IMG/VR virus record: IMGVR_UViG_2671181134_000002
Coordinates: 1-6,437 of that record
Length of the DNA: 6,437 bases
Reading direction: 5' to 3' (one strand)
Origin: a virus
Lineage: Duplodnaviria > Heunggongvirae > Uroviricota > Caudoviricetes
The notes under the pieces are model-generated. The model was not told the origin of the DNA, searched no databases, and worked only from the letters and a program-made list of their open reading frames with translations. The translations under genes and the position numbers were made by a program. Of this stretch, positions 1,417-6,437 are shown in pieces; position 1 is the stretch's first letter, and each line of letters begins with the position of its first letter.

Positions 1417-1441
1417 GACCTTGGATAAGGCAAGGGAAAAC

Positions 1442-1624
1442 ATGGAAAAGTATAAACGAATTCTGTTGAGGTTGACTATGAAAAACGGCCTTGAACTGAA
1501 AGCGCCTGTAACTGATGACATCAGCAGAGCGCTGGCTTTTGCTATTAAGTGGGTGGCGGTCGGTATTGCTGTGTCTCCGATGCTGTATGGACTAGCAAAA
1601 CTGGTCATTGCGTTGAAATCGTGA
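1442..1624 (+). CDS. Small membrane protein inside the lysis cassette (possible holin/antiholin-like or lysis accessory protein)
   Basis: Track ORF 1409-1624, but 1409 lies inside the terminator hairpin. ATG at 1442 is preceded by AAGGGA about 6 nt upstream. 60 aa with a charged N-terminus and one long C-terminal hydrophobic segment (AFAIKWVAVGIAVSPMLYGLAKLVIAL). Confidence 0.4.
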   Translation: MEKYKRILLRLTMKNGLELKAPVTDDISRALAFAIKWVAVGIAVSPMLYGLAKLVIALKS

Positions 1625-1636
1625 AGAGGATTAAGC

Positions 1637-1780
1637 ATGTCAGACAAGCGTCATAACGCTGGCGAAGATCCTCTGTGTAATCGTCGGCATTTCATTTTCA
1701 CTAATGCTGGTTGCTATTTTTCTTTCCCTGGGCTGGATGATGTTGTCTTCGTCGGGGATGCTGGGGTGAGGGGGATATGA
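1637..1780 (+). CDS. Hypothetical 47-aa ORF, translationally coupled to Rz
   Basis: ATG 1637 preceded by AAGAGGA; stop TGA 1778-1780 overlaps the Rz ATG (1777-1779) as ATATGA. Below the ORF-track size cutoff; translation [47 protein letters not shown] has no recognisable motif. Confidence 0.2.
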
Positions 1781-2244
1781 ACCGTGTTCTGTGTGTGGTG
1801 ATTATTGTCCTGCTGGTGGCCTGTGGTGCGCTTAGTCTGGGGCTGAATCATTACCGCGATAACGCCATCACCTACAAAGCGCAGCGAGATAAAAAAGCCA
1901 GAGAGCTGGAGCTGGCAAACGCAACCATTACTGATATGCAGGTGCGCCAGCGCGATGTTGCTGCGCTCGATGCAAAATACTCGAGGGAATTAGCTGATGC
2001 GAGAGCTGAAAATGAAACTCTGCGTGCTGATGTTGCCGCTGGTCGTAAGCGCCTGCGGATCAACGCCACCTGCCACGGTACCGTGCGTGAAGCCACCGGC
2101 ACCTCCGGCGTGGATAATGCAACCGGCCCCCGACTGGCAGACACCGCTGAACGGGATTATTTCACCCTCAGAGAGCGGTTGATGCTGATGCAGAAGCAGC
2201 TGGAAGGGGCACAGGACTATATCCGCACTCAGTGCCTGAATTAA
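1777..2244 (+). CDS. Rz: Rz i-spanin (inner-membrane spanin subunit)
   Basis: 155 aa. N-terminal transmembrane helix ([20 protein letters not shown]) followed by a charged coiled-coil periplasmic domain; sits just downstream of the endolysin; contains an embedded +1-frame lipoprotein ORF. GAGGGGG Shine-Dalgarno precedes the ATG. Confidence 0.85.
1997..2182 (+). CDS. Rz1: Rz1 o-spanin (outer-membrane lipoprotein), embedded in Rz in a different frame
   Basis: Signal peptide with lipobox L-V-V-S-A-C, then a short proline-rich mature domain ([34 protein letters not shown]). True start may be the internal ATG at 2012 ([15 protein letters not shown]). Confidence 0.8.
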
Positions 2245-2246
2245 CA

Positions 2247-2272
2247 GAGCCAGCTTAATCGCTGGCTTTTTC
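2247..2272 (+). terminator. Putative intrinsic terminator downstream of Rz
   Basis: Stem GCCAGC (2249-2254) / GCTGGC (2261-2266) with a 6-nt loop, followed by TTTTT (2267-2271). Begins 3 nt after the Rz stop. Confidence 0.45.
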
Positions 2273-2319
2273 ATATCTGAATTTCACCGCGCATCTCACG
2301 CGCATATCACATCCCCGAG

Positions 2320-2411
2320 CCTTTCAGAAAGTTGAGCCTGAGAACTGCCGTATATGGTGGCGACCATCTCGGGGCGGCTTTTCTGTGAGACAGGCTCAAT
2401 TTTCTGAAAGG
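2320..2411 (+). promoter_or_regulatory. Near-perfect 21-bp inverted repeat bracketing the rha 5' leader; right arm overlaps the rha ribosome-binding site
   Basis: CCTTTCAGAAAGTTGAGCCTG (2320-2340) versus CAGGCTCAATTTTCTGAAAGG (2391-2411): 20 of 21 positions complementary, 50-nt spacer. Right arm contains AAAGG about 9 nt before the rha ATG at 2421. Confidence 0.4.
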
Positions 2412-2420
2412 TAAAACGCG

Positions 2421-2987
2421 ATGAACTATCCGACGATTGTTGACGGTATTGATTTTCGCCAACTGGTAACAGCGGCAGATGGCGAACCAATAACAGACTC
2501 TTTTCAGATCGCTAAGGCGTTTGGTAAGCGTCATGCGGACGTATTGAGGGCGCTGAAAAATTGCCATTGCTCTGAAGATTTCCGGAGAGCGCATTTTTGC
2601 GTTGCCGAAAAAATCAATGAGTTAGGGATTTTCGACAAGAAGCAGATTTACTACCGCATGGACTTTAGCGGCTTCGTTATGCTGGTTATGGGATTTAACG
2701 GGGCAAAAGCTGATGCCGTTAAAGAAGCCTATATTAATGCCTTTAACTGGATGTCCGCTGAACTCCGTAAGTTCAGTGAAAGTTATGAAGCTGAACGCAA
2801 CGCTGTAATGCTGGAGTACATGAAAGAGAAAGATGTTGCCAGTATGTCAGGTCGTTTGCTCAATCGCTGGGGCAGGGTGAAGAAGCCTCAGTTGCTGGCA
2901 AGGCTGGACAGGCTGGACAGGCTGGACAGGCTGGAGCAGCAGGGGCAGATTGCGTTACCCGGATTTGATAAAGGCATTTCAGCCTGA
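2421..2987 (+). CDS. rha: Rha-family phage regulatory protein
   Basis: 188 aa. N-terminal region (DGEPITDSFQIAKAFGKRHADVLRAL) matches the conserved Rha/ORF6 N-terminal domain as I recall it. Variable C-terminus carries an (RLD)n repeat. Confidence 0.8.
   Translation: MNYPTIVDGIDFRQLVTAADGEPITDSFQIAKAFGKRHADVLRALKNCHCSEDFRRAHFCVAEKINELGIFDKKQIYYRMDFSGFVMLVMGFNGAKADAVKEAYINAFNWMSAELRKFSESYEAERNAVMLEYMKEKDVASMSGRLLNRWGRVKKPQLLARLDRLDRLDRLEQQGQIALPGFDKGISA
2894..2938 (+). repeat. 9-bp tandem repeat GCTGGACAG inside rha (three perfect copies flanked by two degenerate ones)
   Basis: Perfect copies at 2903-2911, 2912-2920 and 2921-2929; degenerate copies GCTGGCAAG (2894-2902) and GCTGGAGCA (2930-2938). 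Encodes LARLDRLDRLDRLEQ in frame. Confidence 0.85.
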
Positions 2988-3177
2988 CATAGCCATGCGC
3001 CGTATCGTCGCCGTATTCCTGCATTAACAGAGACCGCAGCCCGACAGGGAGACTCCTCTGCGCGAGTGTGCGGGGATAATCAAAAACGATGCACACCGGG
3101 GTTTACCGCGTTAACGGAGCGCGGCGTTGTCCCCTCATAGTCGCCTGTCCGGTGCGATGGTGGAAGAAACCGAACGT

Positions 3178-3378
3178 TCATTTCTCGTTATTTTTCATGC
3201 TGGCCGGGCGCAGATGCGTTGCATCTGTTGCCAGCCTTCTCCTGCAGGCTTCAATAACCCACGCTGAAAAGTTACCGGACCCTTTATGCTCAAGGGCTAT
3301 GTTGATTTGTTCAATTATGTGATTGGGGAAACGGATATTGCGGGTTGTGGTTCTGCGGGTCCGGTTTTTCGATGACAT
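3178..3378 (-). CDS. Ribbon-helix-helix (Arc/MetJ/CopG-type) DNA-binding protein, reverse-oriented
   Basis: 66 aa. NIRFPNHIIEQINIALEHKGSGNFSAWVIEACRRRL fits the RHH pattern: beta-strand, helix A, a G-S-G-N turn, helix B (compare Arc NLRWP...NGRSVNSEIYQRV). AAGGA lies about 8 nt before the ATG on the minus strand. Confidence 0.6.
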   Translation of the reverse strand: MSSKNRTRRTTTRNIRFPNHIIEQINIALEHKGSGNFSAWVIEACRRRLATDATHLRPASMKNNEK

Positions 3379-3398
3379 ATTTATTTCCTTTACTGATT

Positions 3399-3408
3399 GT
3401 CATATGAC
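3399..3408. promoter_or_regulatory. Perfect 10-bp palindrome GTCATATGAC in the 41-bp gap between the divergent RHH and HNH start codons
   Basis: Direct reading of the sequence. Lies in the leader of both divergent genes. Confidence 0.3.
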
Positions 3409-3419
3409 GGGGATTTTAC

Positions 3420-3785
3420 ATGGCTGAGCTTCGTACACTCCAGAGCAGAATCAAAACACTGAATACCCGACGGGTGAATATTCTGAAGGGGGAACAGCGT
3501 CGTGTCAGTGGCAGTGCACGTGTTTCCCTCAAGCGTCATATCTGGCTCAGGGACGCCGGGCAGTGCTGTCTCTGTGGTCGTGTGGTTGACCTCTGTGACA
3601 GTGAACTTGATCACCGAATTGCACTTCAGTTCGGTGGTGGTAATGAGGAGACGAATCTCTGGACGCTCTGTACCGAATGCCATCGACAAAAGTCTGCTCG
3701 TGAAGCGGCGGGTGGTATGCCGGACCCGACGCTGCCGGAGGTGTCCGGAGGTAGTGGCAGAGCGGACGACATCATCGGACTGTAA
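3420..3785 (+). CDS. HNH endonuclease (phage packaging-associated)
   Basis: 121 aa. Two Cys pairs (CCLCG, CTECH) flank the HNH core SELDHRIALQFGGGNEETNLWTLCTECHRQK. Sits immediately upstream of the terminase genes, as in HK97-type cos phages. Confidence 0.85.
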   Translation: MAELRTLQSRIKTLNTRRVNILKGEQRRVSGSARVSLKRHIWLRDAGQCCLCGRVVDLCDSELDHRIALQFGGGNEETNLWTLCTECHRQKSAREAAGGMPDPTLPEVSGGSGRADDIIGL

Positions 3786-3876
3786 CCCGACCCGGGGGGG
3801 GATCATCCGGCGTAAAAAACGATCGCTCCGGACACCGCGCCCCCTCTCACGCAGAGAAAAAATTCCCGTTTCAGGG

Positions 3877-4004
3877 CAGTTAACATGTTAACTGGCTGCC
3901 CGGGCATTTTTGCGGTTTTTATCTTTATTATTCAGTTTGTTGTGCGGAAAAAATGTTAACTGGCTTTTTCAGCAAATGTTAACCAGGCAGCAGTTAACAT
4001 TTGC
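3877..4004. repeat. Array of GTTAAC-containing palindromes and inverted repeats; candidate terminase-binding / cos-proximal region
   Basis: 18-bp perfect palindrome CAGTTAACATGTTAACTG (3877-3894); TGCCCGGGCA palindrome (3897-3906); ATGTTAACTGGC (3953-3964); 12-bp perfect inverted repeat GCAAATGTTAAC (3972-3983) / GTTAACATTTGC (3993-4004) with a 9-bp spacer. Confidence 0.45.
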
Positions 4005-4074
4005 GGCATGAGACGCCGGGAAAAATGGGCTGAACCATACCCGGCTGAGTGCGTTCTGGACCCGGGAGGAGGCT

Positions 4075-4785
4075 GTGCTGACAACGCAAAAACGAAAATT
4101 TGCGCTGGCGCTCATGTCCGGGAAAAACAAAACAGCGTCAGCCATTGCCGCCGGTTATTCGGCGAAGACCGCCAGGGTTAAAGGCTCACAGCTGGCAAAA
4201 GATCCGGAGGTGCTTGCGTTTATAGCCCGTAAACAATGCGAGACGGTGGAGGTGGATGAGGTTCCTGTTTACCGGCAGAAAAAATCAGAGCAGGAGGATA
4301 AACCCCGTCGCCGTGAGGCGGCTGCAATACCACAGCCGGACGAAAACAATCCGGAGGTGCTTGCGTTTATAGCCCGTAAACAATGCGAGACGGTGGAGGT
4401 GGATGAGGTTCCTGTTTACCGGCAGAAAAAATCAGAGCAGGAGGATAAACCCCGTCGCCGTGAGGCGGCTGCAATACCACAGCCGGACGAAAACAATCCG
4501 GAGATGCCACCGTCCGCGGTGATGTCTCCTGGTATTGAATATATGGAGGATGGTCTTCCCGATCCGGTGAAAGCCATGGGGCGGATCCTGGTGGAAAACC
4601 TCTGCATTGATCCGAAACTGGCACTGGATGCGGCCTGGCGTCTGGCGCAGTTCACGCACCATAAAAAAGGGGATACCGGGAAAAAATCGGCAAAAGGTGA
4701 TGCCGCGAAAAAAGCGGCTAACCGTTTTGCTGTGCCACCGCCACCCCGACTGGTGGTGAATAACGATAATGAGGGAAACGGATGA
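4075..4785 (+). CDS. terS: Terminase small subunit (P27 / Terminase_2-type)
   Basis: GTG start preceded by GGGAGGAGG. N-terminus KRKFALALMSGKNKTASAIAAGYSAKTARVKGSQLAKDPEV carries the AGYSAKTA helix-turn-helix signature of this family. Stop overlaps the terL start as ATGA (4782-4785). Contains an internal 49-aa perfect duplication. Confidence 0.85.
   Translation: MLTTQKRKFALALMSGKNKTASAIAAGYSAKTARVKGSQLAKDPEVLAFIARKQCETVEVDEVPVYRQKKSEQEDKPRRREAAAIPQPDENNPEVLAFIARKQCETVEVDEVPVYRQKKSEQEDKPRRREAAAIPQPDENNPEMPPSAVMSPGIEYMEDGLPDPVKAMGRILVENLCIDPKLALDAAWRLAQFTHHKKGDTGKKSAKGDAAKKAANRFAVPPPPRLVVNNDNEGNG
4204..4497 (+). repeat. Perfect 147-bp direct tandem duplication (2 copies) inside terS
   Basis: 4204-4350 and 4351-4497 are identical base for base by my alignment. 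In frame, duplicating PEVLAFIARKQCETVEVDEVPVYRQKKSEQEDKPRRREAAAIPQPDENN. Junctions carry the 8-bp microhomology ATCCGGAG at 4202-4209, 4349-4356 and 4496-4503. Confidence 0.9.
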
Positions 4786-6437
4786 TACCTGTATGGAGCA
4801 CAGCCTGCCCGGACTGGGCAGAGCGCCTGAAAAAGGGGCTGTCGATTATTCCGGATCCGATTTATCCGGACGAGGCCGCACATGCCCTGGCGATTTTTAA
4901 ACAACTGCGGATAGTGGATGCACCTGGTAGCCCTACGTTCGGGGAGTCCTGTGCACCGTGGGTGTTTGACCTGGTGGCGGCCCTGTTTGGCTCCTACGAT
5001 GCGCAGACCGGTGTACGCCATATCAAGGAAGTTTTTATCCTTATCCCCAAGAAAAACAGCAAGTCCACGCTGGCTGCCGGGATCATGATGACGGCGCTGT
5101 TACTGAACTGGCGGCAGGCGGCGGGCTACACCATTCTGGCCCCGACCGTGGAGGTGGCGGCTAACGCCTTCAACCCTGCCAGGGATATGGTTCGACGGGA
5201 CGATGATCTGGATGACCTCTGTCAGGTGCAGACACATATCCGGACCATCACCCATCGGGTGACGGACACCACCCTGAAGGTGGTGGCAGCCGATCCGAAT
5301 ACGGTGTCCGGTATCAAGTCCGTGGGGACACTGATTGATGAACTGTGGCTGTTTGGCAAGCAGTACAAAGCGGAAGACATGTTACGTGAAGCCATCGGCG
5401 GGCTTGCCTCCCGTCCGGAAGGATTTGTGGTGTATACGACCACCCAGTCGAATGAACCGCCCGCCGGGGTGTTCAGACAGAAACTGCAGTACGCCCGGGA
5501 TGTGCGCGACGGCAAAATTCATGATCCGCACTTTCTGCCGGTGATATTTGAACACCCTCCTGAAATGGTGGAAAGCGGAGCTCACCTGCTGATGGAAAAC
5601 CTCGCCATGGTCAATCCGAATCTCGGCTATTCAGTGGATGAGGCTTTTCTGTGCCGGGAGTACCGTAAAGCCCGGGAAGCCGGTGAAGATACATTCCGGG
5701 GGTTCATGTCAAAACACGCCAATGTGGAAATTGGTCTTGCCCTGCGTTCTGACCGCTGGGCGGGTGCGGATTTCTGGGAGCAGCAGGGCAGGCGCGTCAG
5801 CCTGGACGATATCCTGCAGCGCGCTGATGTGGTGACGGTGGGGATTGACGGCGGGGGCCTGGATGATCTGCTGGGAATGTACGTGATTGGCCGTGACAGG
5901 GAAACCCGCGAATGGCTGGGCTGGGGCCATGCCTGGGCGCATGAAACCGCGGTGGTCAGACGGAAGAGTGAGGCATCCCGTTTTCAGGATTTTGTGGCCT
6001 GTGGAGACATGACGATTGTCCGTCGGGTCGGGGATGACACGGCGGAAGTGGCGGAGTATGTGCGTCGTATTCATGAGGCTGAGTTACTGGATCATATCGG
6101 TATTGACCCGTCAGGTGTGGGGCAGATTCTGGATTCACTGGCGGAAGCCGGGATCCCCGACGGAATTGTTGTGGGGATAAGCCAGGGCTGGAAGCTGGGC
6201 GGGGCCATCAAAACCACCGAGCGCAAACTGGCTGAGGGAGTGCTGGTGCATGGTGGTCAGCCACTGATGGCCTGGTGCGTTGGCAATGCCCGGGTGGAGC
6301 CTAAAGGTAACGCCATCCTTATTACCAAACAGGCCAGCGGACGGGGGAAAATTGACCCGCTGATGGCGCTGTTCAATGCGGTATCCCTGATGTCCCTGAA
6401 TCCGGAGCCCAAAAAGAAAGAATATGCGGTTTTTTTC
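4782..6437 (+). CDS. terL: Terminase large subunit, 5' 552 codons (open to the window end)
   Basis: Frame open from ATG 4782 to the end of the window, so absent from the ORF track. Walker A-like VFILIPKKNSKSTLAAG, Walker B-like TLIDELWLF, and nuclease-domain motif VVTVGIDGGGLDD. Start overlaps the terS stop. Confidence 0.9.
   Translation, partial: MIPVWSTACPDWAERLKKGLSIIPDPIYPDEAAHALAIFKQLRIVDAPGSPTFGESCAPWVFDLVAALFGSYDAQTGVRHIKEVFILIPKKNSKSTLAAGIMMTALLLNWRQAAGYTILAPTVEVAANAFNPARDMVRRDDDLDDLCQVQTHIRTITHRVTDTTLKVVAADPNTVSGIKSVGTLIDELWLFGKQYKAEDMLREAIGGLASRPEGFVVYTTTQSNEPPAGVFRQKLQYARDVRDGKIHDPHFLPVIFEHPPEMVESGAHLLMENLAMVNPNLGYSVDEAFLCREYRKAREAGEDTFRGFMSKHANVEIGLALRSDRWAGADFWEQQGRRVSLDDILQRADVVTVGIDGGGLDDLLGMYVIGRDRETREWLGWGHAWAHETAVVRRKSEASRFQDFVACGDMTIVRRVGDDTAEVAEYVRRIHEAELLDHIGIDPSGVGQILDSLAEAGIPDGIVVGISQGWKLGGAIKTTERKLAEGVLVHGGQPLMAWCVGNARVEPKGNAILITKQASGRGKIDPLMALFNAVSLMSLNPEPKKKEYAVFF

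Follow-up and report, generated by a model that had tools for sequence, protein, structure and literature searches.

A perfect 147-bp in-frame tandem duplication in the terminase small subunit gene of an Escherichia coli prophage, probably produced by recent slippage or template switching at a short direct repeat

A terminase small subunit gene (terS) within an Escherichia coli prophage fragment carries a perfect tandem duplication of 147 bp that preserves the reading frame. We conclude that the duplication is probably a very recent event, in which microhomology-mediated slippage or template switching copied codons 44-92 of a 187-aa parental terS a second time, yielding an allele that is probably tolerated and near neutral. 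The window, by which we mean the whole stretch of DNA that was analysed (6,437 nt), corresponds to the entire contig LOGR01000011.1 (6,437 bp) of the E. coli draft assembly GCA_001608165.1. This contig opens within a DUF1327/YdfR gene and breaks off 6 nt short of the terL stop codon; such ends inside genes are typical of draft fragments at the repeat boundaries of multi-copy prophage modules. The features on which the analysis rests are collected in Table 1.

Table 1. Positions of the packaging genes, the repeat and the associated motifs in the window.
Feature	Position	Strand	Evidence or remark
HNH endonuclease gene upstream of terS	3420..3785	+	Pfam HNH, 29.6 bits (cut-off 21.4); PHROG 589
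Five ATGTTAAC motifs, both orientations, between the HNH gene and terS	3877..4002	.	5 against 0.15 expected; 0/200 shuffles reach 5
terS ORF, 236 aa, GTG start	4075..4785	+	Pfam Terminase_2; PHROG 641; exact protein KYS85267.1
Predicted four-helix N-terminal DNA-binding domain, residues 1-56, SF6 G1P-like	4075..4242	+	AlphaFold2 pLDDT 92-96
ATCCGGAG, left end, parental site 1	4202..4209	+	GAT CCG GAG = D43 P44 E45
Copy 1 of the 147-bp unit (predicted helix 4 of the DNA-binding domain and 38 presumably disordered residues)	4204..4350	+	Identical to 4351-4497; AlphaFold2
ATCCGGAG at the novel junction	4349..4356	+	AAT CCG GAG GTG; junction unique among the records searched
Copy 2 of the 147-bp unit (predicted orphan helix 4 and a second presumably disordered stretch)	4351..4497	+	Missing from the closest relatives
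ATCCGGAG, right end, parental site 2	4496..4503	+	AAT CCG GAG ATG
Two conserved C-terminal helices (predicted), residues 164-194	4564..4656	+	AlphaFold2 pLDDT 84-88; block DPVKAMG...LAQFTHHKKG in alignments
terL, 552 codons, cut 6 nt short of its stop by the contig end	4782..6437	+	Pfam TerL_ATPase and TerL_nuclease

Base-by-base comparison found all 147 nt of the two copies to be identical and arranged head to tail without inserted bases, and a perfect match of this length cannot arise by chance. At a period of 147 nt, identity extends over 4202-4356 versus 4349-4503 (147 + 8 nt), the whole repeat occupying 4202-4503, and Tandem Repeats Finder reported a period of 147, 2.1 copies and a score of 605 for the window. 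The octamer ATCCGGAG is present at all three junctions, a single octamer occupying the novel one, and this 8-bp overlap means that the unit could equally be drawn in any register within 4202-4209. In the register adopted here, the duplicated unit comprises codons 44-92 of terS, repeated as codons 93-141 in an unbroken reading frame. An earlier note on this DNA had described a perfect in-frame 147-bp duplication in terS with microhomology at each of its three junctions, and the sequence comparison and the frame of the ORF bear out both observations. Base composition near the repeat is unremarkable, single-stranded folding of 4195-4365 gave no unusual DNA fold that might promote slippage (z = 0.51), and neither RNA genes nor tRNAs were found in the window.

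Profile and context evidence agree in identifying the duplicated gene as a predicted terminase small subunit gene. Residues 2-57 of its product match positions 1-56 of the 141-position Pfam Terminase_2 profile (PF03592; 35.9 bits against a cut-off of 26.1), and the ORF matches PHROG 641, annotated as terminase small subunit, with E=7e-75, that match being split into two stretches because of the duplication; NCBIfam contained no model for the TerS or TerL of the window. The GTG start is preceded by GGAGGAGG and the stop codon overlaps the terL start as ATGA at 4782-4785, placing terS directly upstream of terL, translationally coupled to it and within a head-morphogenesis module. The same HNH-terS-terL arrangement was seen in all related loci compared, and in the relatives the module goes on with protease-capsid, portal, connector and tail genes. 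HNH-terS-terL is the gene order of HK97-type cos packaging, and the HNH gene adjacent to the terminase genes suggests a cos-type module, as in HK97, rather than a pac/headful one. The earlier note had raised possible effects on headful behaviour, to which the adjacent HNH gene lends no support, and on TerS oligomer geometry or packaging-site recognition, which likewise found no support in our analysis. We also asked whether a pac site within terS might account for the repeat, and rejected the idea, there being no evidence for it and the HNH gene and upstream motifs suggesting recognition outside the gene. Elsewhere the window comprises a lambdoid lysis region with a lysozyme gene, Rz/Rz1 and a Rha/ORF11CD3 gene. 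Its spanin pair is of the embedded Rz/Rz1 type (1777-2244 and 1997-2182), Rz matching Pfam Phage_lysis and the inner ORF being lipoprotein-like, and the location of the Rha-family gene between the lysis and packaging genes is ordinary for lambdoid prophages.

Near-identical single-copy relatives of the duplicated allele were readily found. Removal of one copy from the window yields exactly the terS of the complete genome NZ_CP132728.1 (WP_000958372.1, 187 aa), and positions 1439-6070 of the window are the same as that genome apart from the 147 bp and two 9-bp units. The window and NZ_CP132728.1 are separated by 37 SNPs, 34 of them inside a patch in the lysozyme gene, and by only two length differences, namely the 147 bp and the two 9-bp units by which the Rha-family gene of the window is longer. 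An even closer relative, the draft contig L019 (GCA_032412325.1), differs by five SNPs, one 1-bp indel and the 147 bp; it has the same 9-bp repeat count as the window, and at the 1-bp indel the window agrees with NZ_CP132728.1. The 9-bp unit belongs to a perfect tandem repeat, AGGCTGGAC x3.9 at 2901-2935 in the Rha/ORF11CD3 ORF (2421-2987), which encodes RLDRLDRLDRL and differs in copy number among complete E. coli genomes. Within the lysozyme gene (752-1285), the SNPs relative to NZ_CP132728.1 cluster at 786-1051 in an otherwise identical 6.3-kb stretch, a recombination (mosaic) patch, which is absent in the L019 comparison.

Across wider collections, the terS gene matched 1,258 records from complete E. 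coli genomes as well as 94 phage records, the latter mostly Stx-converting and related lambdoid phages, and among the matches listed at the top for E. coli and phage every one spans 564 nt, that is 711 - 147. The usual length among the best 120 protein relatives was 187 aa, with none exceeding 202 aa, and the family occupies a median of one and up to eight places per E. coli genome. Comparison with related prophage terS genes, which the earlier note had proposed, therefore established that the usual allele has a single copy and is exactly 147 bp shorter. Since the background of the duplication persists almost unchanged in L019 and NZ_CP132728.1, the duplication is taken to be very recent. The earlier note had read the zero divergence between copies as either a very recent event or an assembly artefact; this near-unchanged parental background fits a very recent event, and an artefact is retained as an unlikely alternative, weighed below.

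The novel junction itself was searched for with a 46-mer probe (19+8+19 nt), neither half of which is long enough to seed on a single-copy allele; a 101-nt junction query was uninformative, as the two half-matches of single-copy alleles were joined. The 46-mer matched none of 5,426 complete E. coli genomes and none of 50,697 phage records, and a junction 23-mer had no match in IMG/VR. JGI metagenomes and GTDB genomes each gave a single match to the 23-mer, at positions 1414-1436 of one shared Bacteroidales MAG contig; the gene there is unrelated and the match is due to chance; patterns of about 23 nt yield occasional random matches in collections of such size. That the probe design works is indicated by the analogous 46-mer for the zero-copy junction described below, which found one complete genome. 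At the protein level, the exact 236-aa sequence occurs on one contig only among about 15 billion proteins. With the novel junction absent from the collections searched, the duplication allele is therefore a singleton, and our literature search found no paper describing a tandem duplication in terS.

The parental gene contains the substrate that a slippage event would use. In the 564-nt allele, ATCCGGAG is found twice, at positions 128 and 275 of the gene; the two occurrences are offset by 147 bp and share a codon phase, and one copy of this short direct repeat, present in the parental alleles of NZ_CP132728.1 and L019, lies at the novel junction. The octamers, which have the palindromic core TCCGGA, are not special in themselves, because chance alone should place 8-nt repeats in a gene of 564 nt, and the parental gene has five independent repeat pairs of at least 8 nt. 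We propose replication slippage or a template switch (short-homology illegitimate recombination) in the parental gene, in which the downstream octamer of the nascent strand would pair with the upstream octamer of the template, such that the intervening 147 bp would be copied twice. A reciprocal product, expected of such a mechanism, also exists. The 138-aa allele (P0034; 32 index blocks, 24 contigs read) lacks exactly the 147 bp between the same two ATCCGGAG octamers and has the junction ...GCAAAAGATCCGGAGATGCC..., which was seen at the DNA level in loci L002, L003 and L007; its carriers include the chromosome AP024475.1 and one RefSeq complete genome. The slipped-strand or microhomology origin suggested in the earlier note is strengthened by this exact reciprocal deletion, and octamers in codon phase, a head-to-tail product and a reciprocal deletion together make up the pattern classically left by slipped misalignment or template switching. 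Perfect direct repeats of 155 bp can undergo homologous deletion or expand further, and the two such repeats created here should be recombinationally unstable, a prediction that fits both the zero divergence and the rarity of the allele.

Further length alleles fall in the same part of the gene. A 202-aa TerS in E. albertii (L008-L011) has a 45-bp in-frame tandem duplication, separate from the 147-bp one but in the same tether between the N-terminal domain and the C-terminal block, in which DKPRRREAAAIPQPD is present twice with GA/GGA-type microhomology. A 172-aa allele (20 contigs read) lacks practically the same 45 bp that E. albertii repeats, again with GGA-type microhomology, and a 139-aa allele (seven contigs) lacks 144 bp, with the junction CAGC(T/C)GG. 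The 8-bp microhomology of E. coli is not intact in E. albertii (L008-L011), since both octamers there are changed, to ATCCTGAG and ATCTGGAG. All of these length changes fall between the conserved N-terminal domain and the C-terminal block, a stretch that alignments show to be strongly divergent in sequence among alleles, and the tether is therefore an in-frame indel hot spot, with the 147-bp duplication as its largest known expansion. Neither the +147 nor the -147 variant was found in isolated phage genomes. Two further repeats were observed in this gene family. In the terS tail of the window (4665-4718), a 27-bp unit is repeated imperfectly, in tandem and in frame, with 85% identity (KGDTGKKSA/KGDAAKKAA); this is an older duplication that homologues have as well. 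Locus L003 (10001-14608; LN554921.1, GCA_000946435.1) holds a zero-copy terS with terL followed by a one-copy terS with terL, the two blocks being 97.8% identical over 2.2 kb, and represents either a large tandem duplication, a prophage-prophage recombinant or a mis-assembly.

Two explanations other than slippage were weighed for the repeat itself. It is unlikely, without being negligible, that the duplication is an assembly or library artefact, including a wrong copy number, and that the strain has a single-copy terS; the routes to such an error would be over-traversal of a loop by the assembler, mis-joining of co-resident near-identical prophages or a chimeric library molecule. This explanation draws on the singleton status of the allele among some 15 billion proteins and in all DNA collections searched, on its occurrence in one short 6.4-kb draft contig that ends inside genes on both sides, on the presence of the terS family up to eight times per genome, which makes this a multi-copy prophage region, and on the many database terS entries that are partial genes at contig ends. 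It sits poorly with an overlap of 8 bp, far below the k-mer or overlap lengths usual in assembly, so that a false loop would need reads truly containing AACAATCCGGAGGTG. The contig is otherwise of good quality, matching a complete genome exactly over 4.6 kb and agreeing with that genome at the 1-bp difference from L019; the junction bears a biological microhomology signature, and the reciprocal deletion is found in independent assemblies, complete chromosomes included.

Unequal homologous crossing-over, by RecA or phage Red/RecET, between sister chromosomes or co-resident terS copies could likewise generate a tandem repeat, and several near-identical module copies are often held by E. coli genomes; the tandem terS-terL blocks of L003 imply either that large-scale exchange between copies happens or that they are mis-assembled. 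Efficient exchange by RecA or Red, however, requires roughly 20-30 bp of homology, whereas the homology at the breakpoints is only 8 bp, and there is no sign of a diverged second partner, because both copies and their flanks are identical to one parental allele. We therefore regard crossing-over as highly improbable and retain microhomology-mediated slippage or template switching within a single parental gene as the probable origin.

To place the unit within the protein, AlphaFold2 monomer models were compared for the 236-aa protein and a relative of 187 aa, and they agree. The N-terminal four-helix domain is matched to SF6 G1P both by profile, with hits to 4zc3/2cmp/3zqp, and by fold (Foldseek of residues 1-56 to 4zc3, TM (target) 0.84, rmsd 1.6 A, 56 columns, 30% identity), consistent with a Terminase_2 helix-turn-helix (HTH) DNA-binding domain. 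Since the unit begins at P44, it corresponds to helix 4 of this domain (PEVLAFIARKQ) followed by 38 residues that are predicted to be disordered. In copy 1 the helix (44-54) is modelled with pLDDT >90 and residues 57-92 with pLDDT <50, while copy 2 contributes an isolated helix (93-104) at pLDDT of about 55-72 and residues 106-151 at pLDDT <50. The description in the earlier note, that 49 residues are added to the linker, thus holds for the 38 disordered residues but not for the opening of the unit, which is helix 4 of the DNA-binding domain. The low-confidence tether, a chain that is presumably disordered, comprises about 58 residues in the single-copy protein versus about 107 in the two-copy protein. 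Beyond it lie the two conserved C-terminal helices, presumed to be the oligomerisation or TerL-facing core, and a basic tail. For the C-terminal part of TerS, Foldseek found no structural relative, and the G1P oligomerisation domain (profile positions about 57-141) had no profile, PDB sequence or fold match in this TerS. In the zero-copy allele helix 4 is missing, and its Pfam Terminase_2 score of 26.5 bits barely exceeds the cut-off of 26.1. The two-copy product would retain an intact four-helix DNA-binding domain and the C-terminal helical core, with the disordered tether roughly doubled and an orphan helix 4 within it.

The ATGTTAAC motifs upstream of terS keep identical spacing relative to the terS start (-196 to -82) across 11 related loci, and their cluster contains the 18-bp palindrome CAGTTAACATGTTAACTG; these repeats are candidate TerS-binding or cos-proximal sites. 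In SF6 TerS, the HTH domains hang around the ring on highly flexible linkers (10.1101/851345), and a longer tether would mainly widen the reach of the DNA-binding domains. Given a tether without fixed structure, whose length and sequence vary naturally, the allele is probably tolerated and close to neutral, at any rate in a resident prophage, and a tolerated, near-neutral and unstable allele appears to be the most probable description of the two-copy terS. The portal gene of the nearest complete prophage (NZ_CP132728.1, L014 11491-12272) is annotated as frameshifted, and the lineage may therefore produce no virions or be defective. At locus L002 (14288-16872), gene calling splits the portal into two overlapping genes (454 + 407 aa), in contrast to the single portal gene of E. 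albertii, which encodes 807-861 aa.

Selection on tether length, through altered reach to the upstream ATGTTAAC motifs or escape from a satellite TerS-interference protein, is an improbable explanation of the allele. PICI Rpp proteins target TerS and phages escape them through terS mutations (PMC6739421), but that work concerns the lambda/phi80 TerS, a different family, and HK97 is insensitive (PMC6739421). Other observations that could point to selection are that the tether diverges and repeatedly changes length in frame (-147, -144, -45, +45 and +147 bp) between conserved flanking domains, and that some deletion alleles are present in many contigs (the 172-aa allele in 20 contigs read, the 138-aa allele in 32 index blocks). 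Ascertainment accounts for part of the in-frame pattern, because a protein search misses out-of-frame indels; the duplication was seen once, with zero divergence and so no sign of persistence or spread, and neither length variant was present in any isolated phage genome searched. A broader claim, that the tether is a recurrent in-frame 'accordion' (+147/-147, +45/-45, -144) whose variation is selected, with the two-copy allele a functional extreme rather than a neutral accident, seems to us hardly likely; were it true, selection might act, for example, to retune ATGTTAAC recognition or to evade TerS-targeting satellite proteins. A tolerated, near-neutral product of slippage or template switching remains the preferred reading.

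On this reading, a familiar gene has acquired a new allele through an ordinary and well-established class of mutation. As one more young microhomology-mediated duplication in a prophage, possibly a defective one, it is alone of little weight. The same 49-residue unit, however, is now known in zero, one and two copies on nearly identical backgrounds, a natural allelic series that could be used to probe the roles of tether length and of helix 4 of the DNA-binding domain in cos recognition by an SF6-like TerS that operates, as in HK97, within a cos-type module containing an HNH gene. The case also illustrates that terS length variants in draft assemblies need confirmation at the level of reads.

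Among known systems, the closest counterparts are the single-copy terS genes of lambdoid prophages and Stx phages (e.g. phage YYZ-2008 and Stx1a/Stx2a-converting phages), which have the same gene in the same HNH-terS-terL module; the terS of the window shares 95-99% DNA identity with phage records, and its 236-aa product differs from the single-copy 187 aa by 49 extra residues. With the G1P proteins of SF6 and SPP1 (4zc3, 2cmp, 3zqq) it has in common the N-terminal four-helix HTH domain, whereas its C-terminal part has no detectable match to the SF6 G1P oligomerisation domain, its tether is about 58 residues long even in the single-copy form, and its HNH neighbour suggests cos in place of pac packaging. 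The HNH-terS-terL order is shared with the HK97-type cos module and its HNH accessory endonuclease. HK97 TerS has no defined HTH DNA-binding domain and recognizes DNA passing through its tunnel (PMC11331095), unlike the TerS of the window with its SF6-like HTH domain. As for the mutation, template-switch duplications and reciprocal deletions in E. coli are RecA-independent and distance-dependent and use microhomologies of a few to about 15 bp (PMC1428787). Those events are likewise head to tail, their novel junctions carry a short direct repeat and they are matched by reciprocal deletions; the 147-bp spacing of the terS octamers could be bridged within a single replication fork. Unlike those laboratory-selected events, the terS duplication was seen in a natural prophage gene.
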